NCBI GenBank assembly: GCA_965203355.1
Contig: OZ241889.1
Coordinates: 288,001 to 352,000 of the forward strand
Length of the DNA: 64,000 nt
From: Candidatus Latescibacterota bacterium
GTDB lineage: Bacteria; Latescibacterota; UBA2968; UBA8231
Direction: 5' to 3'
Every line of letters begins with the position of its first letter. The first letter of the stretch is position 1. The notes below the pieces were generated by a model. That model was not told where the DNA came from. It saw only the letters and a program-made list of their open reading frames with translations, and did no database searches. Positions 6,101 through 55,245 of this stretch are shown here, in pieces. The position numbers and the translations under genes are program-made.

Positions 6101-8496
6101 GACAGACCCAGCGGCAAGGTCGACGAAACGCTGTACGAGAGCGTTCCTTGGCCGCCCGTGGCCGCGGGCAAAACCTCGCTGAACGCTTGGCCAACCGTCG
6201 CTTCAAAGGCTAACGCCCCAGCACCAAAGTTCGGTCGGCCCGTGTCCGCGGTCGTATCCGAAGAACCAGAATCGTCCATCTTCGCCGCGTCTTTCAGCGT
6301 GATCGTCACGGAGCCGACCGTGATCTTGTCGTCGTCTTGATTCTTGAGATTGTCCGTGAGCTGCTTGATCGTGATCGTCTTGTCGTTGGCGGGTTTGCCA
6401 TCGTTGATCGGCGTGATCGTGATCGTCGTCGAGCCGGTGATCTCGCCGCGCGGAATCGTCAGCGAGCCAAGCACCGCCGTGTATTCTATATCCCGCGTCG
6501 CCTTCTTGTCCGGCGTCCGATCTACGACCAGCGTGATCGTCGCCGCCGCGTCCAGCACCTTGCCGTCCAACGTGCCGGTCACCGTCACCGTCGTCGCCCC
6601 GGCGTCCTTTTTGATTTCGCTCGGATTGACCGACAGCGTGATGTCATCGCTCAGCGTCTCATCGTCCGTGATCTTGAACTCCACCGTATCCATCTGAGAC
6701 GCTTCGGTGCCGACCTTCGCTATCACCTCGAACGTCCGCGCCCCATTCTTAACGCTGTTGTCCACCGGCGTGACGCGCAGCGTCGCCGTGCCCTTCGTAT
6801 CACCCGCCGGAATCGTCAACCCCTCAGTCACCTCCACCTCGTAATGCACGTCGCGCGTCCCCGTGCTATTCGTAAGAATCTGAAAGTCCACCGCCTTCGC
6901 GCCGGTTAAGGCTTTCTTCAATTCAACGTTCATCGCAATGTCGGTCGCCCCGGCGGCCTCGCGGATCATCTTCGGACTCAGCGTAAAGTCCTTGATCTCC
7001 GCCACCGCAACGTCCTCAACCGTGATGGTGCCCCGGTTGACCTTAATATCAGGCAAGATAAAAGATTCCACGTACTTAATGGTGTCCCCAACACCGAACG
7101 TATCATCAAAGTCGCCATCGCCGTTAAGGTCGATACGGGCATGCCAGAGATATGAAGGTACGGCTCGAAAACCCACTTCACTTATCGCCGCTTCGGGCAC
7201 AAGGGTGTCCAAATAATCACCATCATGCTTGCGATCCTGACCGTCATTTCGACCTGAAAGGACGATACGCTGCTGAAGGTCGACCCCCAACTCGCTTTCT
7301 ACCAAGGCGGGGCTGCCCACAGGTATGGAGTCGACTCGATCCAAAGTTGCAAGATTTCCCAAAACGTAGGATATAGTACCTCCAAGGGAAAAATCACCAT
7401 CGCCGTTGAGGTCAAAGCAGATCCAGGCATCTCGCCTATTAACGCCATCACCGGTTTCGTTCGTTTCTTTGACACTTGATCTGGAACCGGCAGGTATGAC
7501 AAAATTATCGGAGTCCCACGTACCATCGCAGTTGATGTCTAGCCGGAGCTGCTTACCATTATACATCCGTTTCTTGACCTGCCCCTTCAGCAACGTATCC
7601 CTGGCCCCCACCACGATCTTGCCCGCCTTATTATTCGGATCGACGGTGAACGTCGTCGTCCCTTCGATCTTCCGCTTTGGAATGCTCAACTTCCCCAGCC
7701 CCCTAAGCGAGTAATCCACATCGCGCGTCAACGTATCGGCAGCACCGCTAACAACAACCAACTGGGTTTCAAGCTTTTTGCTCGTCAACGCGGGGCCATC
7801 CAACGTGCCTGTCACTTCAATTGAAGTCTCATCCGCCTGCTTGCTGAGCTTGGACGGCTTAAAAGAAAGGTCAATCTCCTGCGGATACTGATCGCCGTCA
7901 ATCAGCTCCACATACAGGTACTTCAAATTACTGCCGCTCTCCTTTACATATCTTTGCTGAGGACGATATGTTATGTCTGCATTACCCAGCGTAAAACGAA
8001 TAGGGACAAGAATATTAGGGAGTACACGCAGCAAATCTTGAGAAACCGCCTTTTCCGTTTCCGGCGTACTCCAGAGGTCGTTTCGATCAAGATCAACGGG
8101 CGCCGTCGGGCTGGCTGGGGTAGGTCCGATCCGATCGTTGGGAATCGGAGTTATGGTGATAGTCCCAGTCGCCTTTTTCTCCCCCGCCTTAATCACGAGA
8201 CTGGAGGGGAAGGATACTCTGAATAAGTCATTGAGATACTTTGCGGAGGCACTTGCTACGGGGACACCCATTGCAATCTGAATGTCTTCGTCCGCCGCCT
8301 CGTCGTCTTCCACGACGGCTTCGACCGTAATATCTTGCGCTCCACCGTCCTCGTGGACGAAAAGCGGGTCAAGGGTAACATGAACATTCTTCTTCTGCTG
8401 ACCCTTGGCCTCCCCGGCCCAGCCCAACACCAAAATGGCCGCCAGCAAACAAGGCACAAAAGCCAACCTCGACAGGAACAACTTCGCGTTTGTCAT
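2821..8496 (-). CDS. 1891-aa secreted multidomain surface protein: Calx-beta-like and putative-Ig repeats, dockerin-like EF-hand pair, cohesin-like domain, FlgD-Ig/T9SS-like C-terminal domain
   Basis: Signal peptide (GEAKG/QQ). DLNGDGD Ca-binding motifs, repeated LPxGLSFDxxTRTISGTP, FDDFFVLAD twice, VGEEFVVNVRL..GYGLQVAYD, and C-terminal NYPNPFNP...SSGMYFYRL...KKMLLLK. Confidence 0.9.
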   Translation of the reverse strand: MTNAKLFLSRLAFVPCLLAAILVLGWAGEAKGQQKKNVHVTLDPLFVHEDGGAQDITVEAVVEDDEAADEDIQIAMGVPVASASAKYLNDLFRVSFPSSLVIKAGEKKATGTITITPIPNDRIGPTPASPTAPVDLDRNDLWSTPETEKAVSQDLLRVLPNILVPIRFTLGNADITYRPQQRYVKESGSNLKYLYVELIDGDQYPQEIDLSFKPSKLSKQADETSIEVTGTLDGPALTSKKLETQLVVVSGAADTLTRDVDYSLRGLGKLSIPKRKIEGTTTFTVDPNNKAGKIVVGARDTLLKGQVKKRMYNGKQLRLDINCDGTWDSDNFVIPAGSRSSVKETNETGDGVNRRDAWICFDLNGDGDFSLGGTISYVLGNLATLDRVDSIPVGSPALVESELGVDLQQRIVLSGRNDGQDRKHDGDYLDTLVPEAAISEVGFRAVPSYLWHARIDLNGDGDFDDTFGVGDTIKYVESFILPDIKVNRGTITVEDVAVAEIKDFTLSPKMIREAAGATDIAMNVELKKALTGAKAVDFQILTNSTGTRDVHYEVEVTEGLTIPAGDTKGTATLRVTPVDNSVKNGARTFEVIAKVGTEASQMDTVEFKITDDETLSDDITLSVNPSEIKKDAGATTVTVTGTLDGKVLDAAATITLVVDRTPDKKATRDIEYTAVLGSLTIPRGEITGSTTITITPINDGKPANDKTITIKQLTDNLKNQDDDKITVGSVTITLKDAAKMDDSGSSDTTADTGRPNFGAGALAFEATVGQAFSEVLPAATGGQGTLSYSVSSTLPLGLSFDAGTRTISGTPTLAGMASVVYTALDSDGDSGAKTFTITVGEAAPVTVGIASVIASQSAVRENGETAEIRVTATLSEAAPAAERVRFTIVPPTSGAAATRDVDYTATLAGTITIAAGEKAGWTTLFLSPIDNASADGHKHLGVRAAASGGWGQVDIRISDDETPSTSLVLSVRPSALSESAELTEVMIMAALDGKPLAENATVSVSIDAASSAARDLDYSALFNPTITIAAGSIMGSTRLLIDPTADGMAEGDETIMLNAMLPGLTAGSATLVLTDTDSGMTDDNDGDEKMMIPLSFVEGTSIDAHAYTAGTAITPLVLPVALGGEGAITYSVSGLPAGLSFDAATRTISGTPEAEGSTEVTYTAMAGAESVSLTFTITINAMLDWGDLGSLFGGGGAGKANPADSHDNSMIQFTVGVPANLTLPAVSGGTPPLTYSVSGLPTGLSFDPATRTISGTPTTMGETVATYTVMDASGASQSLPLSMAVVEPPLSAPTNLVAEDYKGADGQGDQGGFVMLSWELSADHKSLDGYRIFRALPVLENEMVPWARVDAVPGVAMGRAIVATLDNVSTRWGIAAEKDGRTTHEMAKAVFVEAGDLTAPYAQMAATLQASRAAAQEGPVLASLLPEALAYARGVAPKLNVVSSVLSSSITWTAEAVRATDDIAPLAVSALQVLDAPDDQGGRIALTWTLSPSDQVLQGVVAGALGPAPVEPVVGVHGYRIYRRAVGDETFSVVAEVEAGVASFVDETAQHGVHYTYQVRAFDLDNETGSVEHTALAVRNRVTDSQGQALLGLFGADARIGFDDFFVLADRFGLTAGDAGFDPAFDLAPNGTIDFDDFFVLADHFGRSVAAAGKPVPLRTGLNGDARLYLDAPAALPSVGEEFVVNVRLADFVAVKGYGLQVAYDADQLTFVEARTDQPLGGSAFATPQVLADQAGVLTVAAHGDVVSDGELILRLVFRPTTEIEHTTLEITDSQTYDRALGFNRLALPAPISVQTRPAVFSLAANYPNPFNPQTTIQYALPQAADVGLTVYNVLGQPIRTLVAEHQSAGRYAVEWDATNDSGQSVSSGMYFYRLQAGGDFLDIKKMLLLK

Positions 8497-35563: not shown

Positions 35564-36490
35564 GAAGCGTTTTTAAAATTCATTTTTTTTAGCGATTCGC
35601 TTGAGTATCAAATGGATCATCGCGATTTGGATAAAGGCTTCACTATTGCAAGTTAGGTGCTCGTAGTCTTTGGCATGGACTCGATAGTTGAGTAGCCAAG
35701 CAAACGTTCGTTCGACGACCCAACGACGAGGGAGCACCTCAAAGCCGGAGCCTTGTTTGGATACGACTTCAAGGTCTATTTTGTGCGTTTTTTTTTGAGC
35801 CACCCATTGCCTAAGCGGCGCGCCTTTATAGGCTCCATCCACCCACAGCTTGCGTAACCTTTGTACCGTGGGTGAAAAGTAGGTTTTCAACAAGGTCTTC
35901 AAGCCGTCGGCATCCGAGGTCGAAGCGGCGGTCACCACACATTCAATCAGACGACCCTCGGTGTCGACCAACAGATGGCGTTTGCGTCCTTTAACCTTCT
36001 TGCCGGCATCGTATCCAACACTTTTACCTTGGGTGGCCGTGGTAACGCTCTGCGCGTCCACGATCCCCGCCGACGGGGTCGGTGCCCGGCCGTGCTGGAT
36101 GCGATCCTGCTTGGTTAGGGCGTCGAGTATCTGTGGCCAAACCCCTTGTTGACGCCAGCGATTGAAGTAGCCATACACCGTTTGCCAAGGCCCAAAACAC
36201 CGCGGCAGCATCGGCCAAGGACACCCGGTTTTAGCCCGATACAGCAGCCCATTCATCACCAAACGCACCGCCCGAGGTGGCCGACCCGGACCCCCTTGAC
36301 GCCAACGGCCCCGAGGCAGCAGACGAGCAAGTAACAGCCATTGTGCATCGGTCAAATCCGTCGCATATTCTACACCGGGCGTACCCATATATAACCCCCC
36401 TTTCAGGCTTTGTGATGAAACCTAAAGGTCGGTTCATGGGTACGTCCTTTCAAGGGAAAATCAACTAAAAGTGAATTTTAAAAAGGCTTC
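35564..36490 (-). mobile_element. IS5-family insertion sequence (IS1031-like), 927 bp
   Basis: Terminal inverted repeats GAAGC(G/C)TTTTTAAAATTCA; 3-bp TTA target duplication at 35561-35563 and 36491-36493. Confidence 0.95.
35573..36388 (-). CDS. IS5-family DDE transposase
   Basis: YATDLTDAQW, TGCPW..LP..FGPWQTVY, IVDAQS, VDTEG, VDGAY, RWVVERTFAWL. Confidence 0.95.
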   Translation of the reverse strand: MGTPGVEYATDLTDAQWLLLARLLPRGRWRQGGPGRPPRAVRLVMNGLLYRAKTGCPWPMLPRCFGPWQTVYGYFNRWRQQGVWPQILDALTKQDRIQHGRAPTPSAGIVDAQSVTTATQGKSVGYDAGKKVKGRKRHLLVDTEGRLIECVVTAASTSDADGLKTLLKTYFSPTVQRLRKLWVDGAYKGAPLRQWVAQKKTHKIDLEVVSKQGSGFEVLPRRWVVERTFAWLLNYRVHAKDYEHLTCNSEAFIQIAMIHLILKRIAKKNEF

Positions 36491-39900: not shown

Positions 39901-40290
39901 TTACCGCGTCTTTACATGCGCGTACTGTAGTATTTTTTGATCAACCGTGAGCAGTTCACAGTCGTACTCGCGGGCGGTTGCAACGATGATTTGATCGGCC
40001 GGATCGCGGTGAAATTCACCCGGCAATTTGGTCGCAGTAATGGCAATCCTTGGAGTGAGTTCAATATATTGAATACCGGGTAAGGCCAGTGCTGTGTCCA
40101 TCCATTCCTCAATAGGGCAGGCCAATTTCAGTCTTTTGTATTCCACCAACTTGGCGATCTCCCAGCAAGAAATTGCCGATACCCCAAGACCGGTCGGCCG
40201 CTCTTGCTCAATTACATTCCTATAGTACTCGGTTAGTCGCTCGTTTTCATCGGCCAGCCAGACCCACAGGTGAGTATCCAGAATAATCAC
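39901..40290 (-). CDS. vapC: PIN-domain (VapC family) toxin
   Basis: IILDTHLWVW, SAISCWEI, HRDPADQIIVATA, LLTVD. Confidence 0.92.
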   Translation of the reverse strand: MIILDTHLWVWLADENERLTEYYRNVIEQERPTGLGVSAISCWEIAKLVEYKRLKLACPIEEWMDTALALPGIQYIELTPRIAITATKLPGEFHRDPADQIIVATAREYDCELLTVDQKILQYAHVKTR

Positions 40291-40505
40291 TTTAATAGTT
40301 CCCAGTCATCTTCAGCGACAGGCTCCGTCGGCTCCACATATTCAATGACTTTGCCGCGCAGCGGCGAAGGTGTCACAGAGTGGAGGCCGGTTCCATACGA
40401 CAATATAATTACTTCTACCTTGTCTCCTTCTTTAAAAGGAAGAGCACTCAGCTTTAGTTCTCCGTTTGCGGCGATCTGTTTCTCGACGCGATAGGCTTTC
40501 ATCAC
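40287..40505 (-). CDS. Putative antitoxin of the adjacent PIN toxin
   Basis: 72 aa, overlaps the toxin start by 4 bp; LPFKEGDKVEVII..LRGKVIEY..P.EPVAEDDW. Confidence 0.8.
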   Translation of the reverse strand: MMKAYRVEKQIAANGELKLSALPFKEGDKVEVIILSYGTGLHSVTPSPLRGKVIEYVEPTEPVAEDDWELLK

Positions 40506-45197: not shown

Positions 45198-47018
45198 ATG
45201 ACCGCTAAAATCCTCGTTGTCCTCCTCCTCTTCGCCTTACCCATTCAAGCCAAAACTCAGATCGAAGCAGCCTATGAAGTCGGCGAACTCGACTTGGAGA
45301 CGGCCCTGATCTACCAAGTCCTCAGCGTGCGCTCACCCAATCAACTGCCGGCGATCTACCGAGAGTCCAGCGGGCCAGCGGTTTGCGGGACCCCGCATCT
45401 AGTCCAAGCCATGAGCGCCGCTCCCGACCTGAGTGCCGAGTTCCAAGCGCGCTTGGGCAAGCTGGCGCAGCGTCGGCCAGACGCCCAACATGACATCCTC
45501 TCGCCATCGGGGCGCTTTCGCGTCCACTACGATACCGAAGGACGCCACGCGGTTTCGCCTACGGACGACGACGCCAACGGCATCCCGGACTACATCGACC
45601 GCACCATGGCCGTGCTCGACAGCGTTTGGGTACTCGAAATCGATCAATTAGGCTACAATCCGCCGCCTTCGGACAACGGCTTGGGCGGAGGCGACGAATA
45701 CGACGCGTATGTTATCGAGCTAAACGGCGGATATTATGGATACGCCTATCCTGCGAGTAACAGTACCGAAACCACGCACAGCTACCTCGAAATCGACAAC
45801 AACTTTACCGATCCGGGCTACAAGCAAACTCGCGGGTTAGACGCCCTGCGCGTAGCTATTGCCCACGAGTTCCACCACGCCATCCAGTTTGGCTACTACG
45901 CAAAATTCGACGGCAGTTGGTGGCAGGAGTCCACCTCGACGTGGATGGAAGAAGTGGCCTATCCGCCCATCGACGATTACCTCCAGTACTTGACCTACTT
46001 CCTCGGCGAACCCCAACGCGCCCTCAACTCCGGCGTTTATCGCAGTCTCCACACCTACGGCTCGGCGATTTTTTCGCTCTTCCTCGATCAGCGCTACGGC
46101 CCCGATCTCAAATCCCTGATCCGGGCGGAGCTGAAACAGCACTCACCAGATGTCATCGCGCTACGGGCGCGGGCGCATCTCAACCGCTTGATCTGGGAAG
46201 AAATCAAGGCGCGCAAAAGCGTCCATCTCGATCACTTCGACCGCGTCATCCGCCAAGTCGAGCCGGGCGGGCTCGGCGTTGCTATGAGCGAGTTTGCCGT
46301 GTGGAACTATTTCACCGGCAATCGCCACCGAGGCTCATACTATGCCGAAGCAGACAAATACCCGACCGTCCCCACCCGCGACCTCGCCATCAACGCCGAA
46401 GCGGTCGTCCGCGACACCAGCCTCGTCGATGCCACCGGCAGCGTCTATCTGCGCCTTCAGCCGCAACTGCGCACGGGCGGAGTCGATCTCTTCTTCGACG
46501 CCAATCAAGGAGCGTGGCGGCGGCACTTGCTCTTAATCGGCCCGGACCGCGTTTCCGTGCAACTCGTCTCCGAGCCGACCATCCGCGTCACGAGTTGGGA
46601 CCAGTTCGACGAAATCGTCCTCGTCGCCACTGCCGCCGAGCGCACGGGTCTCGCCCATCAGCACTTCTTCACCGCGCAGTTCGATCCTAGTCTAATCGAG
46701 TCCGACCGGCCCGCCGCCCTCGCCACCCGGCTCAAACCCAACTATCCCAATCCCTTCCGCCCCCCTTACCATTCACACACCCGGCTGGCGTTTGACTTAG
46801 CCGTCCCCAGCCGAGAAACGCGCCTTGCACTGTTTACGGCCAACGGTACGCTCGTATGGGAGCAAGACTTAGGCGAGCGGGCGGCACGCCCAGACCACGC
46901 CGTGCGATGGGATGGCCGCAACCTCGCTGGCAACCTCGTAGCCAGCGGCATCTATCACCTGCTTCTCGAAGCCGACGGCATCGCCGCTAAACGATCACTC
47001 GCGGTGGTGCGCGATTGA
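45198..47018 (+). CDS. Secreted zinc metalloprotease (MXAN_6640-like) with FlgD-Ig C-terminal domain, copy 1
   Basis: Signal peptide, CGT, FRVHY, AHEFHHAIQFGY, WWQESTSTWME, NYPNPF. Confidence 0.85.
   Translation: MTAKILVVLLLFALPIQAKTQIEAAYEVGELDLETALIYQVLSVRSPNQLPAIYRESSGPAVCGTPHLVQAMSAAPDLSAEFQARLGKLAQRRPDAQHDILSPSGRFRVHYDTEGRHAVSPTDDDANGIPDYIDRTMAVLDSVWVLEIDQLGYNPPPSDNGLGGGDEYDAYVIELNGGYYGYAYPASNSTETTHSYLEIDNNFTDPGYKQTRGLDALRVAIAHEFHHAIQFGYYAKFDGSWWQESTSTWMEEVAYPPIDDYLQYLTYFLGEPQRALNSGVYRSLHTYGSAIFSLFLDQRYGPDLKSLIRAELKQHSPDVIALRARAHLNRLIWEEIKARKSVHLDHFDRVIRQVEPGGLGVAMSEFAVWNYFTGNRHRGSYYAEADKYPTVPTRDLAINAEAVVRDTSLVDATGSVYLRLQPQLRTGGVDLFFDANQGAWRRHLLLIGPDRVSVQLVSEPTIRVTSWDQFDEIVLVATAAERTGLAHQHFFTAQFDPSLIESDRPAALATRLKPNYPNPFRPPYHSHTRLAFDLAVPSRETRLALFTANGTLVWEQDLGERAARPDHAVRWDGRNLAGNLVASGIYHLLLEADGIAAKRSLAVVRD
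46179..47018. repeat. 840-bp near-identical direct repeat, copy 1 (copy 2 at 50712..51551)
   Basis: Constant offset of 4533 bp at both ends; only scattered substitutions. Confidence 0.95.
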
Positions 47019-47067
47019 AAAACGCAAACGGCGTGGGTAGCACTCACCTAAAAGTACGTAATGATGC

Positions 47068-47116
47068 AAAAAAATAGCCGGATTCTCCTATAATTACCTC
47101 TAGGAAAATCCGGCTA
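47068..47116 (-). terminator. Intrinsic terminator of the minus-strand peptide operon
   Basis: TAGCCGGATT(T/C)TCCTA stem followed by T7 on the minus strand. Confidence 0.7.
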
Positions 47117-47174
47117 AATTGCCTCGCCGGTAAGATCGCAGCCAGTGGCGTTTATCGTCTCTTACAGGAAGCCA

Positions 47175-47205
47175 ACGGCTAGCAGGCGTTGCGCTTGCTA
47201 GCCGT
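47175..47205. other. 14-bp stem-loop just 3' of the cysteine-rich peptide gene
   Basis: ACGGCTAGCAGGCG-ttg-CGCTTGCTAGCCGT. Confidence 0.6.
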
Positions 47206-47232
47206 CTTACGAGACTAGGGACCCATAGATCG

Positions 47233-47553
47233 CTAGCAGGCCCCTCCGTTCCAACAACGATTGCACTCGTCGTATACTTGATACCCCCCCGTCCCGTCCG
47301 GACAGAACATTCGGATATACTTAGCCCTATATCCGGGGGCTATGTCGCAACATGTGGATAGGACTTGGGAACTGCATCCCCCCCAAGCAGGTTTGCATGC
47401 CCACGCTTCTTTGGGCGTGAGGAACAAAACCCCTGCGGTGAGCAGAAGCACAAAACCCACGACGGGCAACCTGAGCGACTTTTGAGCAGAACCGCTCTCG
47501 TCGTGCAAAAAGTTCTGCGCCTTGACCAAGGCCATCTTGATCATCGTTTTCAT
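47233..47553 (-). CDS. Precursor with Flp-prepilin-like leader, signal peptide and 8-Cys core
   Basis: RBS AAGGAG; NFLHDESG, hydrophobic helix, AWA, then C-x6-C-x7-CC-x14-C-x12-C-x2-C-x5-C. Confidence 0.8.
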   Translation of the reverse strand: MKTMIKMALVKAQNFLHDESGSAQKSLRLPVVGFVLLLTAGVLFLTPKEAWACKPAWGGCSSQVLSTCCDIAPGYRAKYIRMFCPDGTGGYQVYDECNRCWNGGAC

Positions 47554-47660
47554 CCCTACTTCTCCTTGTTAGATATTATGAGAGACTACTTTTGACCTAC
47601 TCGCGGGCGATTCTCTATCCTCCTTTCTGGCCCTACGGACACGAGTATCGTCGTGGCTAT

Positions 47661-48224
47661 CTATAGAGATAACCCGAACGAGATTATAATACTCCCCTTC
47701 ATAAAAACCGTACAGATGCTAGATGCTACAATTATGGGACCAAAGGGAATTGTTCCCGTAAGTTTCTTGCTATTCTTAGAGGAATCGGAGATACCAAGTC
47801 TCTTAAAAATCCAACCCAATCCCAAGACTATCAGGTATATGCAGATCGCATTGAGTAAGAACACAGCAGGGGCCGTCCATATAGGGACCGCCTTTAGATG
47901 TGTAAATAAAGTTGGCGGTAAGGATATAGATGCCGAGACAAATAATTTAGCGTCGCCAGGCCCCCAAAAATTCAGTATATATAAAAGCACACCTATAACC
48001 ATGGCCACACCCAATATAGTAGAAAACAACTTATACCCTATCGCATTTTCATAGATAAGAATAAGGTTGCCTAACAAACCGGTAAGAAAAATTATAAAAT
48101 TATACCTGTTCGGGACTAAACGACTCTTCAAATCAACATATCCTGCATAGATGCCAATAGTTAGAAGAACGGCAAGCATGATAAATTCGGTAACAAATGT
48201 GGTATCGTACACTTTGAACCCCAA
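47661..48224 (-). CDS. Prepilin peptidase, A24 family (CpaA/TadV-like, no methyltransferase domain)
   Basis: YVDLKSRLVPN and WGPGDAKL catalytic aspartates, C-terminal IPFGP, multiple transmembrane helices. Confidence 0.88.
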   Translation of the reverse strand: MGFKVYDTTFVTEFIMLAVLLTIGIYAGYVDLKSRLVPNRYNFIIFLTGLLGNLILIYENAIGYKLFSTILGVAMVIGVLLYILNFWGPGDAKLFVSASISLPPTLFTHLKAVPIWTAPAVFLLNAICIYLIVLGLGWIFKRLGISDSSKNSKKLTGTIPFGPIIVASSICTVFMKGSIIISFGLSL

Positions 48225-48228
48225 GTGG

Positions 48229-48768
48229 CTAATTCAAACTGTCCAAGATATTCTCTATACAACTACTGCCTCGCTCAACTTCCACTATTACTCCTTCACT
48301 GTTCACTAATATAGCGGTAGGAAAAGTATCAATTGAGTACATTTGAGTCACACCGAAATCTCTATCCCAGCCTATCGCTTCCCTTATTCCATATTGGTCA
48401 ACTTTTTCCTTAATAATCTGCTTATTGCCAGAAATGACTACAAGAATAGGCATAGAGACCGCCTGAAGATCGACATACATGCTGTCACAAGCAGAGCACC
48501 CTGCACTACTAAACACGAGCATATTGGGGAGGCGATCATTTGCGGAACCGAATTCAATTCGATTCCCGTCAATTGTCTCTATCTCGAAAGGCTGCACCTT
48601 AGTGTTCTTCAATGACTCGGCCAGCGAATTCGTCAATCTGACGGCGTTACTGTTTCTCGTCATGTGCAAGTCGGCCATTAAAAGGAACGCCAAGAGCAGT
48701 CCATTAATAATAGATATTGGTTTAATAAGCGAATTCAGTTTCATTGTAACTTCAAGGCGGTCATTCAT
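48229..48768 (-). CDS. Membrane-anchored thioredoxin-fold protein (TlpA/ResA/MauD-like)
   Basis: N-terminal TM helix, PFEIETIDG, LVFSSAGCSAC, cis-Pro motif TFPTAILVNSEGVI. Confidence 0.85.
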   Translation of the reverse strand: MNDRLEVTMKLNSLIKPISIINGLLLAFLLMADLHMTRNSNAVRLTNSLAESLKNTKVQPFEIETIDGNRIEFGSANDRLPNMLVFSSAGCSACDSMYVDLQAVSMPILVVISGNKQIIKEKVDQYGIREAIGWDRDFGVTQMYSIDTFPTAILVNSEGVIVEVERGSSCIENILDSLN

Positions 48769-49342
48769 TAGTGTGAGAATTCGTCCAGTTGTATAGCAAG
48801 TCCAATCCTCTAACTAGAGCCTCTACGGACTTTGTCGCCCCCGTAACTCCGTCAACTTGTAATAGAGTATTACTGTTGTCGGATTCCAATAGTCCAAATT
48901 GAGATAGAATCGGCTGAGGGTCGAACGGCTCTCCCTGAAGTTCCCAAGGCTCAAGAGGAACAATGTCTTGTATTTCCCTTGTCAGACAATTAAAAACGAC
49001 CGCGACTAGCAAATCCCTACAGACATCACAAGCTATATCCTCCCTTAAAATAGCTGCGTACATATCGCCATATTCTAAGACTTCTATTATTCCAGAAGCC
49101 GGAACTCGATTGGGGAAAAAAATTGATCTCAACGTTGGGACATCCTGACCAAGGGTTTCATTCAACTTTACCAATAATTCTTGTGGAGGGGGATGCCAAG
49201 GGAGCGAAGGATTATAGCTCGACCTCTGCTCTTCAAATGCTATTAAGCGACTGCTTGCAGACCATGCCATTAGCGTCAAGAGCAAACAAACAATAGCTAG
49301 CACAATAAAAATGGGGTCTAATAAGTCAGCTTTACGAAACAT
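48761..49342 (-). CDS. Membrane-anchored CxxC protein with a C-terminal FMN-attachment motif
   Basis: N-terminal TM helix, CDVC, VDGVTGATKS. Confidence 0.72.
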   Translation of the reverse strand: MFRKADLLDPIFIVLAIVCLLLTLMAWSASSRLIAFEEQRSSYNPSLPWHPPPQELLVKLNETLGQDVPTLRSIFFPNRVPASGIIEVLEYGDMYAAILREDIACDVCRDLLVAVVFNCLTREIQDIVPLEPWELQGEPFDPQPILSQFGLLESDNSNTLLQVDGVTGATKSVEALVRGLDLLYNWTNSHTNE

Positions 49343-49679
49343 AATTGGTACCAGTCAAGGCAGTATTCCATTCGGCTAGAACCGAGCGATCTACTTGGCG
49401 ATGATCTTCTATCAAATGAACGGTCGGCGAGAAGCGATATACCGCAGAGTAAGCATCGTGGTCGTATGCGCGTACCATTAAGCCAACCAGTCCGAGCACA
49501 ACGCTGATCGGGTAGGCGATCAACGACTTCCGCTCATCGGTAGTGCCTACGAGCCCAGTACAGAATGTACTGACCAGAATTGCTATCTCATTGGGGGCTA
49601 AAAAGGAAGAGTTCGGCAATAGCCATAATGCGTTTGTCATCAACGGCTCGTTTGACCAAGAGGCGGTATCGAAACTCAA
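49332..49679 (-). CDS. Hypothetical membrane protein, possibly truncated
   Basis: Hydrophobic segments; stop overlaps the next start by 11 bp; start uncertain. Confidence 0.4.
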   Translation of the reverse strand: MSFDTASWSNEPLMTNALWLLPNSSFLAPNEIAILVSTFCTGLVGTTDERKSLIAYPISVVLGLVGLMVRAYDHDAYSAVYRFSPTVHLIEDHRQVDRSVLAEWNTALTGTNYVS

Positions 49680-49689
49680 AGATGACGTA

Positions 49690-49720
49690 AGTCTAATAAA
49701 AAAAAAAACTTAGCTGTCAA
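49690..49720 (-). promoter_or_regulatory. Candidate promoter of the peptide operon with T11 in the spacer
   Basis: TTGACA-gctaag-T11-at-TAGACT. Confidence 0.55.
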
Positions 49721-49904
49721 GTACTTTTTGCAACTTTTTGCAAAAAAAATGCGGACGGGAGGACCAGTCCCTTCGCCCGCGTTGGGTTTAACCGTTGTTT
49801 TCGGCAGTTCATTATCCTATAATTCTGCTGTACGGAGATTTGTGGCTGTTAGAATTCTGGCGCGACAACTCCCAATTTTTTTGATGACCTAGGAGAATTA
49901 TTCT

Positions 49905-51551
49905 ATGATCTTGACGCTAGCTATCGGAATACTGCTATCTACGGCACACGACAATCATGCAGAAACACCGCCGCAGCACACCTCGACCGCACTGCGCTGC
50001 GGCACCCCCTACGTGCTCCAAGCCATGGACGCGAGCACCGAACACCCGCGTCTAAAACTCGTGCAGCACCCCCGGCCTGGCACTCAGCACAGCCTGATAA
50101 CGCCCTCCGGTCTTTTCCGCGTCCACTACGACACCGAGGGACGCAATGCGGTTGATTCGGACGACGACGATGGCAACGGCGTCCCGGATTACATCGACCT
50201 AGCCGCTACCGTTCTCGATAGCATTTGGGTGTTGGAAGTCGAGCAACTCGGCTACAATCCGCCCCCTTCGGACAATGGCTTGGGCGGAGGAGACGAATAC
50301 GACGTTTATGTTGTCGAATTAGGAATCGGCAATAGGACTTTTTATGGGTTCGCCTATCCTGGAACACCCAGCGCGATCACCTACAGCCATCTCAAAATCG
50401 ACAACAACTTTACCGACCCAAGCTACAAGCAGACCCGCGGGCTGGACGCCCTGCGCGTGACCATCGCCCACGAGTTCCACCACGCCATCCAGTTTGGCTA
50501 CTACGCAAAATTCGACGGCAGTTGGTGGCAGGAGTCCACCTCGACGTGGATGGAGGAAGTGGCCTATCCACACATCGACGATTACCTCCAGTATTTGACC
50601 CACTTCCTCGGCGAACCTCAACGCGCCCTCAACTCCGGGCCTTGTGGTAGCAACCACACCTACGGGAGTGCGATCTTTTCTTTGTTCCTCGATCAGCACT
50701 ACGGCCGCGAGCTCAACCGCTTGATCTGGGAAGAAATCAAGGCACGCAAAAGCGTCCATCTCGACCACTTCGACCGCGTCATCCGCCAAGTCGAGCCGGG
50801 CGGGCTCGGCGTTGCTATGAGCGAGTTTGCCGTGTGGAACTATTTCACCGGCATTCGCCACCGAGACCAATACTATGCCGAAGCAGACAAATACCCGACC
50901 GTCCCCACCCGCGACATCGCCATCGACGCCGAAGCAGTCGCCCGCGACACCAGCCTCGTCGATGCCACCGGCAGCGTCTATCTGCGCCTTCAGCCGCAAC
51001 TGCGCCCGGGCGGAGTCGATCTCTTCTTCGACGCCAACCAAGGAGCGTGGCGGCGGCACTTGCTCTTAATCGGCCCGGACCGCGTTTCCGTGCAACTCGT
51101 CTCCGAGCCGACCATCCGCGTCACGAGTTGGGACCAGTTCGACGAAATCGTCCTCGTCGCCACTGCCGCCGAGCGCACGGGTCTCGCGCACCAGCACTTC
51201 TTCACCGCGCAGTTCGATCCTAGTCTGATCGAGTCCGACCGGCCCGCCGCCCTCGCCACCCGGCTCAAACCCAACTACCCCAATCCCTTCCGCCCCCCTT
51301 ACCATTCACACACCCGGCTGGCGTTTGACTTAGCCGTCCCCAGCCGAGAAACGCGCCTTGCGCTGTTTACGGCCAACGGCACGCTCGTATGGGAGCAAGA
51401 CTTAGGCGAGCGGGCGGCACGCCCAGACCACGCCGTGCGATGGGATGGCCGCAACCTCGCTGGCAACCTCGTAGCCAGCGGCATCTATCACCTGCTTCTC
51501 GAAGCCGACGGCATCGCCGCTAAACGATCACTTGCGGTGCTGCGCGATTGA
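49905..51551 (+). CDS. Secreted zinc metalloprotease (MXAN_6640-like) with FlgD-Ig C-terminal domain, copy 2
   Basis: RBS AGGAG; RCGTP, AHEFHHAIQFGY; C-terminal half nearly identical to copy 1. Confidence 0.85.
   Translation: MILTLAIGILLSTAHDNHAETPPQHTSTALRCGTPYVLQAMDASTEHPRLKLVQHPRPGTQHSLITPSGLFRVHYDTEGRNAVDSDDDDGNGVPDYIDLAATVLDSIWVLEVEQLGYNPPPSDNGLGGGDEYDVYVVELGIGNRTFYGFAYPGTPSAITYSHLKIDNNFTDPSYKQTRGLDALRVTIAHEFHHAIQFGYYAKFDGSWWQESTSTWMEEVAYPHIDDYLQYLTHFLGEPQRALNSGPCGSNHTYGSAIFSLFLDQHYGRELNRLIWEEIKARKSVHLDHFDRVIRQVEPGGLGVAMSEFAVWNYFTGIRHRDQYYAEADKYPTVPTRDIAIDAEAVARDTSLVDATGSVYLRLQPQLRPGGVDLFFDANQGAWRRHLLLIGPDRVSVQLVSEPTIRVTSWDQFDEIVLVATAAERTGLAHQHFFTAQFDPSLIESDRPAALATRLKPNYPNPFRPPYHSHTRLAFDLAVPSRETRLALFTANGTLVWEQDLGERAARPDHAVRWDGRNLAGNLVASGIYHLLLEADGIAAKRSLAVLRD
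50712..51551. repeat. 840-bp direct repeat, copy 2
   Basis: Matches 46179..47018. Confidence 0.95.
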
Positions 51552-51635: not shown

Positions 51636-51687
51636 TTGACAGTTGCGCTGCGATGACGTATGGTAACGACCCAAATCATACGTCATC
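51636..51687 (+). promoter_or_regulatory. TA promoter with overlapping palindromic operator
   Basis: TTGACA-17 bp-TATGGT; GATGACGTATG-N14-CATACGTCATC perfect inverted repeat. Confidence 0.75.
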
Positions 51688-51701
51688 TGTGGAGACAACT
51701 G

Positions 51702-52046
51702 ATGCAAACCAAGCTCACGCTGCGCTTAGAGGCGCAATTAATCGAACGCGCTAAGGCCCATGCCAAAAAGCAGGGCAAGTCCGTATCGCAGATGGTGGCT
51801 GACTATTTTGCGTTGCTGGATCGAGACGATCTGCTAGAGACGCTACCACCGATCACTCGCTCTTTATACGGTGTCTTGAAAGGCTCTGCGGTTGATGAGG
51901 ATACATACCGCGAACATCTCAATGTCCAGCTACAGGGCCGTCCTACTCACCGCACCAAGGAAGTCCAACTGGGACGTTGCCTGATCGATAGCATGGACGA
52001 TGTTTCTCAGGCACTGTCCATAGCTGAGGAAGAAGACGCTCGGTGA
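51702..52046 (+). CDS. Ribbon-helix-helix antitoxin (DUF6364-like) with an extra C-terminal tail
   Basis: MQTKLTLRLE..IERAKAHAKKQGKSVSQMVADYF..LPPITRSL.G; RBS GGAG. Confidence 0.8.
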   Translation: MQTKLTLRLEAQLIERAKAHAKKQGKSVSQMVADYFALLDRDDLLETLPPITRSLYGVLKGSAVDEDTYREHLNVQLQGRPTHRTKEVQLGRCLIDSMDDVSQALSIAEEEDAR

Positions 52047-52483
52047 GGCTGGTCGATGCTAACCTCTTGGTATATGCCCACGTCGCCGACTTTGACCAAC
52101 ACCGGGCTGCACACGCTTGGCTCGACGACAAGCTAAACGAAACAATTCCACTCGGCCTGCCGTGGTCCAGCCTGTTGGCCTTCGCTCGTTTAGTATCTAA
52201 TCCCCGCATTTTTGAACGCCCGGAACCCATAGCAACAGCTTGGCAACAGGTTGAGTTCTGGCTCGACGCTCCCGCAAGCTGGATACCGCTGGCCACGGAT
52301 CGCCATCGGCAAGTCCTGGCCCCGTTGCTTAAAACCCCAAACCTGCGTGCCGATCACATACCTGACGCTCATCTCGCTGCACTCGCCATTGAGCACGACT
52401 TACTCCTTTGTTCTACCGACACTGATTTCGCCCGCTTCCCCAAGTTGAGTTGGGAAAATCCCCTCGTCAACGTAGAGTTCTAA
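52043..52483 (+). CDS. vapC: PIN-domain (VapC family) toxin
   Basis: LVDANLLVYA, PDAHLAALAIEH, STDTDFARF. Confidence 0.92.
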   Translation: MRLVDANLLVYAHVADFDQHRAAHAWLDDKLNETIPLGLPWSSLLAFARLVSNPRIFERPEPIATAWQQVEFWLDAPASWIPLATDRHRQVLAPLLKTPNLRADHIPDAHLAALAIEHDLLLCSTDTDFARFPKLSWENPLVNVEF

Positions 52484-54501: not shown

Positions 54502-54516
54502 GATTGCATCGCAATC
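54502..54516 (+). promoter_or_regulatory. Palindromic operator candidate for the FitAB-like TA
   Basis: GATTGC-atc-GCAATC about 55 bp upstream of the antitoxin start. Confidence 0.45.
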
Positions 54517-54569
54517 ATGGCGTAATTTGGGACCGGACGACCAACAAGGACCAACAAGGACCATATATC

Positions 54570-54812
54570 ATGGCGAGCATCACGATCCGCAATCTCGACG
54601 ACGACGTGAAGACCCAGCTTCGCATGAGGGCGGCGGGAAATGGCCGCTCTATGGAAGAAGAGGCGCGGGTGATCCTGCGCGAAGCCGTCGGACGCAAGCC
54701 GGCTTCGCAAGATCTCGCGAGCATCATCCACACCCATTTCGGACCTGCCAATGGCGTGGACTTAGAGCTACCGCCGCGCGAGCCCGTACGCGAGCCGCCT
54801 CGGTTCGATTGA
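54570..54812 (+). CDS. FitA/StbC-like ribbon-helix-helix antitoxin
   Basis: MASITIRNLDDDVKTQLRMRAAGNGRSMEEEARVIL. Confidence 0.9.
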   Translation: MASITIRNLDDDVKTQLRMRAAGNGRSMEEEARVILREAVGRKPASQDLASIIHTHFGPANGVDLELPPREPVREPPRFD

Positions 54813-54822
54813 AGTAACCGCC

Positions 54823-55245
54823 ATGTTCCTTCTTGATACCAACGTCGTGTCTGAATTGATGCGCCGGGTGCCCGAACCCGCTGTGGCAGCTTGGGCCGCC
54901 AGACATGCTTTGGAGACTCTCTTCTTTTCGGCAGTCAGCGAAGCCGAACTGCGCTACGGTGCCGCCATCATGCCAGAAGGACGCCGCCGGGATACGTTGG
55001 CCGCGGACATCGAGACGATGCTGCGTGCGGCGTTCGATAACCGCGTTCTGCCGTTCGACAGCGATGCGGCACGTGCTTATGCGAGCATTGCCGCCGGGCG
55101 CCGTCTCGCCGGGCGTCCGGTCGCGTCGGCTGATTGCCAGATCGCGGCCATCGCACACTCCCAAGGTATGACTGTGGCAACGCGGAACGTTCGGGATTTC
55201 TCGGACATGGGCATCGACGTGATCGACCCATGGGAGAACGTGTGA
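54823..55245 (+). CDS. vapC: FitB/VapC PIN-domain toxin
   Basis: LLDTNVVSELMR, ELRYG, DCQIAAIA, ATRNVRDF, IDPW. Confidence 0.93.
   Translation: MFLLDTNVVSELMRRVPEPAVAAWAARHALETLFFSAVSEAELRYGAAIMPEGRRRDTLAADIETMLRAAFDNRVLPFDSDAARAYASIAAGRRLAGRPVASADCQIAAIAHSQGMTVATRNVRDFSDMGIDVIDPWENV

Follow-up and report, generated by a model that had tools for sequence, protein, structure and literature searches.

Several described systems share features with a small cysteine-rich precursor gene, and with the cassette around it, found in a 64,000-nucleotide stretch (the window) of contig OZ241889.1 from a 'Candidatus Latescibacterota' bacterium. According to passages of PMC10191384, a class III signal peptide consists of a hydrophilic leader ending in Gly or Ala and followed directly by 20–25 hydrophobic residues, often with Glu at position 5. 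In Flp/Tad prepilins, a short hydrophilic leader ending in Gly is combined with an adjacent short prepilin peptidase of family A24 (TadV) that has no methyltransferase domain. The precursor in the window likewise has a short hydrophilic leader ending in Gly and a short A24 gene beside it. However, its hydrophobic stretch is shorter and does not begin directly after the Gly, Glu5 is missing, and an AxA-type site follows.

Prepilin-type signals on proteins other than classical pilins are known from the sugar-binding proteins of the Sulfolobus bindosome (PMC3047682). For these, a type IV-like assembly system (Bas) is required and a second site of the class I type is absent, whereas the cargo considered here is small, cysteine-rich and bacterial. 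The sublancin operon (sunA-sunT-bdbA-sunS-bdbB; passages of PMC6391423) likewise contains a leadered precursor, a dedicated leader-removing protein and disulfide oxidoreductases. However, in sublancin an ABC transporter-peptidase takes off the leader, where here an A24 peptidase together with signal peptidase is proposed, and the operon has no flavoprotein. Compared with clusters for bacteriocins or ribosomally made peptides with post-translational modification in general, the locus has a conserved leader, a variable core and dedicated processing genes, but neither an exporter nor an immunity gene was seen.

Precursors of cysteine-bridged venom and sponge peptides (conotoxin-like logic; barrettides) pair a conserved signal or leader with a hypervariable cysteine-rich core (passages of PMC12426817). 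The same arrangement is seen in the family of the window gene and in an array of paralogues in G001, the closest genome found. However, the venom and sponge precursors are eukaryotic genes with endoplasmic reticulum signal peptides and propeptides, and no relation in sequence or fold was found. Lastly, the thioredoxin-like/ApbE systems of Méheust et al. (2021; passages of PMC8238504) likewise place an extracytoplasmic protein with an [S/T]GA[S/T] motif beside thioredoxin-like proteins. Those clusters use DUF3570, DsbD and DUF4266, the passages of PMC8238504 contain no link to A24 or to a cysteine-rich precursor, and the corresponding protein in the window adds an invariant CxxC. Partial precedents are therefore available in the non-pilin class III substrates of Sulfolobus, in bacteriocin operons with disulfide oxidoreductases and in hybrid thioredoxin/flavinylation clusters. 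No description of A24-linked cysteine-rich precursors was found in the literature searched, which did not extend to subscription-only papers or supplements. The word 'prepilin' is absent from a sponge peptide review and from a Latescibacterota genome paper, and a literature search on Poribacteria and cysteine-rich proteins returned nothing relevant.

On balance we lean towards reading the window gene as the precursor of a secreted, disulfide-rich and fast-evolving miniprotein. Its bipartite leader would be cut by the A24 peptidase on the cytoplasmic side and by signal peptidase I outside, and a thioredoxin/flavoprotein pair would fold the cargo; each of these processing steps is deduced from sequence.

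Precursor, leader and relatives

The features of the locus are as follows.

47034..49903, no strand: cassette, present or absent as a segment; 2.9 kb, G+C fraction 0.448 against 0.582 for the window
47068..47116, minus strand: terminator-like hairpin 3' of the precursor; 16-bp stem, 94% complementary, followed by T7
47233..47553, minus strand: precursor gene, 106 amino acids (aa) plus stop; 11 homologues and a match to a leave-one-out hidden Markov model (HMM)
47236..47397, minus strand: predicted mature domain, residues 53–106, with 8 Cys; hairpin motif FCPDGxGGY conserved, otherwise hypervariable between strains
47398..47490, minus strand: signal-peptide-like residues 22–52; A50, W51, A52 and C53 invariant in the precursor family
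47491..47553, minus strand: leader, residues 1–21, ending NFLHDESG; G21 invariant in 12/12 and 19/19 aligned sequences, F15 nearly invariant
47562..47567, minus strand: Shine-Dalgarno sequence AAGGAG, read from the sequence 8 nt ahead of the ATG
47661..48224, minus strand: open reading frame (ORF) 2, short-form Peptidase_A24; 187 aa from a TTG, homologues starting 4 codons later
48229..48768, minus strand: ORF3, membrane-anchored thioredoxin-like protein with a C-S-A-C site; family matches below cut-off plus the invariant residues of alignment A5
48761..49342, minus strand: ORF4, membrane-anchored FMN-binding-like protein with CxxC (C105/C108) and T170; invariant residues of alignment A3
49332..49679, minus strand: ORF5, doubtful, 115 aa from a TTG; no family matched and no counterpart seen in related loci

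The precursor ORF runs from an ATG at 47553–47551 to a TAG at 47235–47233. The ORF list and a script confirmed the layout given in the first-pass annotation, which had described a leader ending NFLHDESG, a stretch ending AWA and a remainder of 54 aa with 8 Cys; the Glu that it found missing at position +5 after Gly21 is a Ser. We take the leader, of the form FLxDESG, to resemble those of Flp proteins. Residues 22–52 (SAQKSLRLPVVGFVLLLTAGVLFLTPKEAWA) consist of a basic spacer (SAQKSLR), a 17-residue hydrophobic stretch and TPKEAWA. This portion shows the features of a Sec-type signal, namely K25 and R28, the hydrophobic segment L29–L45, and A50-W51-A52. The spacing of the eight Cys, computed by script, is 6-7-0-14-12-2-5.

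A word-indexed search of 5.8 billion clusters identified 11 unnamed metagenomic homologues of 106–132 aa and 64–83% identity. In the alignment of all 12 sequences (A1), Gly21, the AWA-C junction and the 8 Cys are invariant, and FCPDGxGGY is invariant or nearly so. Searches with A1 yielded no relatives in genome or metagenome contig collections, and its HMM gave a best value of only E 0.017 against 5 + 167 Latescibacterota genomes. This family profile is too narrow, and a broader profile was therefore needed.

The broader profile derives from the neighbourhoods of A24 genes. Of 167 Latescibacterota species genomes, 31 have genes of the ORF2 type (28–40% identity) and 26 have relatives of ORF4, usually 1–4 kb from A24. 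Beside these genes lie small ORFs built like the precursor. In each, a Met lies 11–40 residues ahead of the motif F-[FLIV]-x-[SDN]-E-x-G. From there a short basic spacer, in the typical case x-x-S-x-R/K-x-G-L-P-V-A-W, leads into ~16 hydrophobic residues, and an AxA-type site separates these from a cargo of 40–55 residues with 6–10 Cys in quite different frameworks. A loose pattern found precursor-like ORFs in 15 of 30 A24-homologue loci (102 kb), versus none of 80 unrelated UvrA loci (300 kb), and the precursor itself is its sole match within the window. An alignment of 19 precursors from nine subfamilies (A2) shows the leader Gly as the sole invariant N-terminal residue, with F at −6 nearly so. 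The basic spacer between this Gly and the hydrophobic stretch is present in all 19, and the putative signal peptidase site, read by eye, has A at −1 and A, V or S at −3 in 19/19. Pfam and NCBIfam gave no significant match for any of the 19.

An HMM built from the 18 precursors of other subfamilies matched only the window ORF among the 688 ORFs of at least 50 aa in the window (E 3e-5, versus 0.47 for the next best), and also found all 11 of its family homologues. Membership in the larger family is therefore not an artefact of the search pattern. The full A2 HMM detected precursors in 35 of the 167 Latescibacterota genomes (142 listed matches, up to 20 per genome, often in islands) and in 39 of 176 Poribacteria genomes, and in none of 251 sampled Planctomycetota or 201 sampled Verrucomicrobiota. 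All 31 genomes with an ORF2-type A24 gene fall among the 35 with precursors, and not one of the 132 precursor-negative genomes has such a gene. Of the 142 listed matches, 66 lie at most 10 kb from an ORF2-type A24 gene; by chance <1% would be so placed, on a rough estimate that assumes about two A24 loci in a genome of 5–6 Mb. In Poribacteria, long A24 homologues were found ~1–8 kb from precursors in all five genomes examined. Precursors with bipartite leaders thus form a large, so far unnamed family in Latescibacterota and Poribacteria.

Taken together, the conserved homologues, the match to an independently built HMM and the A24 gene directly upstream indicate that the gene is real, beyond chance. 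The interpretation in the first-pass annotation is supported in part, and its proposal of two stacked leaders holds up well. The arrangement agrees with the adjacent A24 gene, the invariant Gly, the AxA-type site in 19/19 and the linkage to A24 in two phyla, while the cleavages are predictions: A24 would cut after Gly21 and signal peptidase I after Ala52. The public sequencing runs listed as containing the locus include no RNA run.

Further arrangements were observed in relatives of this family. In genome G146, two larger members (283–330 aa) have the same leader, two or three cysteine-rich repeats and a C-terminal domain of the FlgD_ig/type IX secretion system (T9SS) type. In the islands L144, L156 (G001:C1:1043000-1074000), L157 (G003) and L158 (G146), the gene after each small cysteine-rich precursor gene encodes an FG-GAP beta-propeller protein of ~700 aa whose C-terminal domain is of the T9SS type, and this unit is repeated up to eight times; the pairing suggests peptide-propeller partnerships. 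The island cores hold ORF4-like genes, long A24 genes and one or two thioredoxin-like genes (two in L157 and L158). Next to the cores in G001 and G003 are genes for transglutaminase-like proteins and glycosyltransferases, and next to the island in G146 is a sigma-54 activator gene. Duplicated MacB_PCD/FtsX permease genes (775–776 aa) occur directly downstream of precursors in L145 (11235–13562) and L148 (1245–3575) and could serve export or self-protection; the window cassette has none.

The A24 peptidase and readings of the leader

ORF2 matches the prepilin peptidase family PF01478 with E 2.7e-9 (37.9 bits, cut-off 26.5). Its catalytic residues D31 and D91 (GPGD) are invariant in 12/12 aligned enzymes. 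It is a short form, missing the ~150-residue insert of relatives with 356–387 aa. The precursor therefore combines two properties of a class III substrate, a hydrophilic leader ending in Gly and a cognate A24 enzyme with both catalytic Asp.

These properties, and a predicted beta-sheet head that fits a pilin-like shape, would also be expected of an Flp-like pilin or pseudopilin with a cysteine-rich head, anchored in the membrane or polymerised after the A24 cut. We consider this very unlikely. Pfam Flp_Fap (PF04964) was not matched by the ORF (E<=0.1), by its 19 relatives (E<=1) or in genomes G001–G005. The 17-residue stretch follows basic residues and lacks the +5 Glu, the AxA site is invariant, and larger family members bear T9SS-type C-terminal domains instead. 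Pilus, Tad and type II secretion genes (ATPase, platform, secretin) were not found among the 31 large window ORFs scanned. The assembly ATPase PF00437 gave no match in G001–G004, the nearest genomes, at E<=1e-3, while the same search was positive in 13 of 14 reference genomes used as controls; G005 has one PF00437 gene, on another contig. G001–G004 each have one or two A24 genes, and for these enzymes the substrates must therefore be something other than filament subunits. The linked precursors would be the obvious candidates. The presence of A24 without PF00437 in the four nearest genomes searched also makes the pilus-anchored alternative of the first-pass annotation unlikely.

A more serious alternative is that the signal peptide is of the ordinary Sec kind, though with an n-region that is extended and conserved, and that signal peptidase I alone releases the cargo. 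The A24 enzyme would then clear the leftover, release an N-terminal fragment as a cytoplasmic signal, or have some other role. This is the main rival to the bipartite leader, and it uses the same parts, with A24 acting as a post-cleavage signal-peptide peptidase or a regulator. K25 and R28, the 17-residue h-region, Pro at −6 and AWA make a complete class I signal by themselves. The distance of seven residues between the Gly and the hydrophobic stretch is atypical for prepilins, and about half of the precursor matches are not beside an A24 gene. Parallels exist in the eukaryotic GxGD signal peptide peptidases (SPP) and in the YSIRK and ESPR extended signal peptides. However, a coupling between A24 and precursor is needed here as well; the two readings part only over which cut comes first and what each is for. 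In addition, an invariant Gly at the end of the acidic F-x-x-x-E-x-G fits the cutting of A24 enzymes behind Gly or Ala (passages of PMC10191384). We regard it as unlikely, though as deserving real weight.

The junction itself could also be read as the lipobox of a lipoprotein, AWA|C, with Cys53 acylated. A Cys does follow the small-residue site directly in 12/12 members of the window's family. However, the usual lipobox is L-[AS]-[GA]-C, which the Ala at −3 and Trp at −2 misfit, and acylation would leave seven Cys. In the aligned subfamilies the residue after AxA is mostly E, H, D, N, S or G (read by eye from A2). A lipoprotein is accordingly the least probable of the alternatives that we weighed.

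Long A24 genes were also seen in other settings. In L103, L146 and L147 (G107, G108) they occur in three or four identical copies per genome and adjoin genes for secreted proteins of 300–322 aa with a common C-terminal tail, ..VESVTW(S/G)RIKA(T/M)F.., which is possibly another sorting tag. Three loci look decayed or disrupted (L094 in G002, L095 in G003, and L145 at 7115–8434). Among them are an A24 gene cut to 111 aa beside transposase fragments, another A24 gene of 145 aa with no precursor nearby, and a Mutator-family transposase inserted into a thioredoxin-like gene.

Variation and fold of the cysteine-rich domain

Mean pairwise identity in the precursor family is 73% over residues 1–21, 93% over residues 22–52 and 51% over the mature part (43% without the Cys columns). 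Homologues of the neighbouring proteins are more similar, six of the A24 protein at 81–87% and those of ORF4 at 87–89%. Among the parts of the locus, the cysteine-rich domain is therefore the one that changes fastest.

The same boundary appears between strains, for which contigs from four public runs were aligned to the region at >=80% DNA likeness. In run X7, a contig of 3764 nt includes the cassette, flanked by the same genes as in the window, but has 210 unalignable letters in place of 47184–47388. Contigs from X5 break off at 47395 and 47393, and one from X9 aligns only from 47393 onward. DNA similarity (80%) to these three runs is thus lost at 47389–47395, within the codons of Cys53–Pro55. 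Since the codon of Cys53 is 47395–47397, similarity ends a few codons into the mature domain.

Substitution patterns were estimated in two arrays by the ratio of nonsynonymous to synonymous rates (dN/dS; Nei-Gojobori). In the five-paralogue array of G001, core dN/dS is 1.24–4.12 in 10/10 pairs; the leader, with a similar dS, has a dN of ~0. In a three-gene array of G094, core dN/dS is 0.37–0.56 (3 pairs), which points the other way. Both arrays are small samples from sister subfamilies of the window's family, without a significance test, and the values are consistent with diversifying selection in the family itself without proving it. A diversity-generating retroelement was considered as the source of the variability and judged unlikely; the 64-kb window holds no second copy of the core DNA, and no reverse transcriptase was seen among the 31 large window ORFs scanned.

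A profile search of 1.84 billion representatives matched only the family's own cluster and one further protein, P0013 (1590 aa, metagenomic). The latter has FG-GAP-like repeat blades with YVFTPDGxGGY, matched in six stretches (E 2.7e-6). Its likeness to the mature domain (FCPDGTGGY) was judged to be at the level of the motif.

AlphaFold2, run with the family alignment, gave a predicted local distance difference test score of ~87–91 for residues 61–100. The predicted strands (61–72, 75–85 and 91–96) would form a long three-stranded sheet over ~45 residues. Foldseek found no match in the PDB at E<=0.001, and a PDB profile search with A1 returned nothing. With VIA-align, the best of 48,161 chains reached Z 3.4, under the tool's own meaningful level, and no knottin was listed. 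A match to the structure of laterosporulin-3 (Z 2.4) was likewise dismissed as not meaningful.

The first-pass annotation had compared the C-x6-C opening and the adjacent Cys pair with the inhibitor cystine knot (ICK) of toxin-like knottins. There is some likeness, in that the first six Cys of the mature domain follow the order C-C-CC-C-C and a three-stranded antiparallel sheet is predicted. However, C-x6-C does not hold throughout the family: among its 12 members loop 1 has 5–10 residues and loop 4, after CC, has 14–18. The ICK consensus has 1–4 residues between Cys IV and V. The mature domain differs further in its size (54 residues with 8 Cys), in loops of 14–18 and 12 residues and in strands of 11–12 residues. 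On the predicted model, size, strand length and the variable loops of 5–10 and 14–18 residues argue against an ICK fold. With no knottin among the structure matches either, the comparison is unsupported.

Redox genes, cassette and proposed pathway

Two further genes of the cassette encode candidate partners for the cysteine-rich domain. In an alignment of ORF3 relatives (A5), the first active-site Cys and a Pro at the expected cis-proline position are invariant in 9/9, and relatives of ORF3 exceed the AhpC-TSA cut-off. The 16 sequences of the ORF4 family carry a membrane anchor at the N-terminus and share two invariant motifs, C-x-x-C (C105, C108) and D-G-x-[ST]-G-A-T (T170), the latter reading DGVTGAT in the window. 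The sequence [S/T]GA[S/T] is the motif of flavinylation by ApbE (passages of PMC8238504). In L148 the gene immediately upstream of the ORF4 relative encodes ApbE (E 1e-75), and each of the genomes G001–G005 has one ApbE gene. PDB sequence and profile searches with ORF2 and the ORF4 family (A3) returned nothing. The flavin-linked CxxC protein and its thioredoxin-like partner may form a private disulfide relay for the cysteine-rich cargo. Their presence in the cassette favours, circumstantially, disulfides over metal binding.

The same genes could be taken to suggest that the eight Cys, instead of forming structural disulfides, bind metal or carry electrons outside the cytoplasm in a chain that includes the flavoprotein and the thioredoxin-like protein. 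In favour of this are the single CxxC and single CC of the domain and the redox proteins encoded next to it, and passages of PMC8238504 describe small Cys-motif proteins in hybrid thioredoxin/flavinylation systems. However, the number (6–10) and spacing of the Cys differ widely by subfamily, which suits scaffolding disulfides better. The core is also hypervariable, and the Cys count is even in the window's family. This reading therefore appears improbable.

On the minus strand the cassette reads, from head to tail, ORF4, ORF3, ORF2, precursor and hairpin. The frames overlap or nearly touch as far as the A24 gene, which is encoded 108 nt upstream of the precursor. The same gene order is found in loci L145 and L148 of other Latescibacterota. 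For 5 of the 11 precursor homologues, the longest contig has the same size as that of A24 or ORF4 homologues (5337, 4762, 1983, 3004 and 3210). In the X7 contig, 49345–49535 (the region of ORF5) is replaced by 109 other letters; ORF5 was left out of the gene count because of this replacement and because no family matched it. Rfam on the cassette and PADLOC on its five ORFs returned nothing.

The cassette is a presence/absence polymorphism. An empty site is seen in a contig from X9, which joins 47033 to 49904 with 36 other letters between. In G001 (UvrA 96% identical), the flanking MXAN_6640-type metalloprotease genes are 5 bp apart and the cassette is missing. A 14-nt direct repeat (D3) near both ends of the cassette was treated as chance, since it lies inside the junctions set by the empty site.

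The flanking genes, 45198–47018 and 49905–51551 (both plus strand), encode paralogous MXAN_6640-type HExxH metalloproteases with FlgD_ig/T9SS-type C-terminal domains, the last ~230 residues of which are nearly identical. An orphan remnant of a sorting domain (..GKIAASGVYRLLQEANG*) lies inside the left edge of the cassette at 47129–47182 (plus strand), beside a hairpin at 47175–47205. At the upstream edge (~49672–49800) there is an element of ~100 nt with a hairpin, a T-run and TTGACA, which recurs at three unlinked places in G001 and G002 and gives rise to loose contig ends in X4 and X5; it may be a small repeated regulatory or mobile element. Elsewhere in the window are three toxin-antitoxin-like pairs with PIN domains, at 39901–40505 (minus), 51660–52483 (plus) and 54504–55245 (plus), one with a FitA-like ribbon-helix-helix antitoxin and one with DUF6364, and a DDE transposase of the IS4/5 family (35573–36388, minus).

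A pathway that would account for the bipartite leader and its linked genes can be outlined as follows. The hydrophobic stretch would insert via Sec with the N-terminus of the precursor in the cytoplasm. The A24 aspartic peptidase of the cassette would recognise F-x-x-x-E-x-G and cut after Gly21 at the cytoplasmic face, and signal peptidase I would cut AWA|C after Ala52 on the outer face, freeing the cysteine-rich domain. Four disulfides might then be installed by the thioredoxin-like protein (CSAC), with a covalently flavinylated CxxC protein re-oxidising it. Rapid diversification of the cargo at the level of strains fits antagonism, or contact with host, phage or neighbouring cells.

Several observations weigh against this pathway. 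Its weak point is that the need for an A24 cut is unexplained if signal peptidase I frees the cargo anyway. Seven polar or basic residues separate Gly21 from the 17-residue hydrophobic stretch, which makes the precursor an atypical A24 substrate, and AlphaFold2 confidence is low for residues 1–52. More than half of the listed precursor matches (76 of 142) lie >10 kb from a detected A24 gene or on another contig. The redox assignments rest on matches under the curated cut-offs, for ORF3 to ResA (NF002854, E 9e-9) and Thioredoxin_2 (E 1.2e-3), and for all 16 members of the ORF4 family to FMN_bind (best E 5e-4). Relatives of ORF4 were found in none of the five Poribacteria genomes examined, and the flavoprotein is therefore not a universal part of the system. 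The host is presumably diderm, yet the cassette includes no exporter or immunity gene. The predicted mature peptides of the precursor family are near neutral (isoelectric points 4.9–8.5), unlike many cationic antimicrobial peptides, and the ratios in the G094 array are low.

A bolder proposal, which we put forward tentatively and consider possible rather than probable, is that these genes represent an unrecognised maturation pathway in sponge-associated Latescibacterota and Poribacteria. In cells whose type IV filaments were lost or never existed, a homologue of the prepilin peptidases would have been recruited to process a bipartite leader (class III-like plus class I), and each genome would encode dozens of disulfide-rich miniproteins that carry this leader and are under positive selection. 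For folding them, Latescibacterota would use a covalently flavinylated CxxC thiol oxidase of a new kind, which would act with thioredoxin-like partners and correspond, in the periplasm, to the flavin-dependent sulfhydryl oxidases. The window gene would be a mobile, minimal and self-contained version.

If the proposed processing is correct, A24 peptidases would have a bacterial class of substrates outside the pilins and pseudopilins, and would persist without type IV filament machinery. The FMN-binding CxxC protein may in that case be a new route for generating disulfides outside the cytoplasm. With its four credible genes and own terminator, the 2.9-kb cassette is the smallest unit of the pathway for heterologous expression. 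More broadly, two uncultivated phyla that are dominant in sponges would encode large, fast-evolving sets of small, disulfide-rich secreted proteins. Such sets would parallel, in bacteria, the gene families of venom-like or defensin-like peptides and would offer stable peptide scaffolds, and the miniproteins would be candidates for interactions between symbionts, between symbiont and host, and between symbiont and phage.

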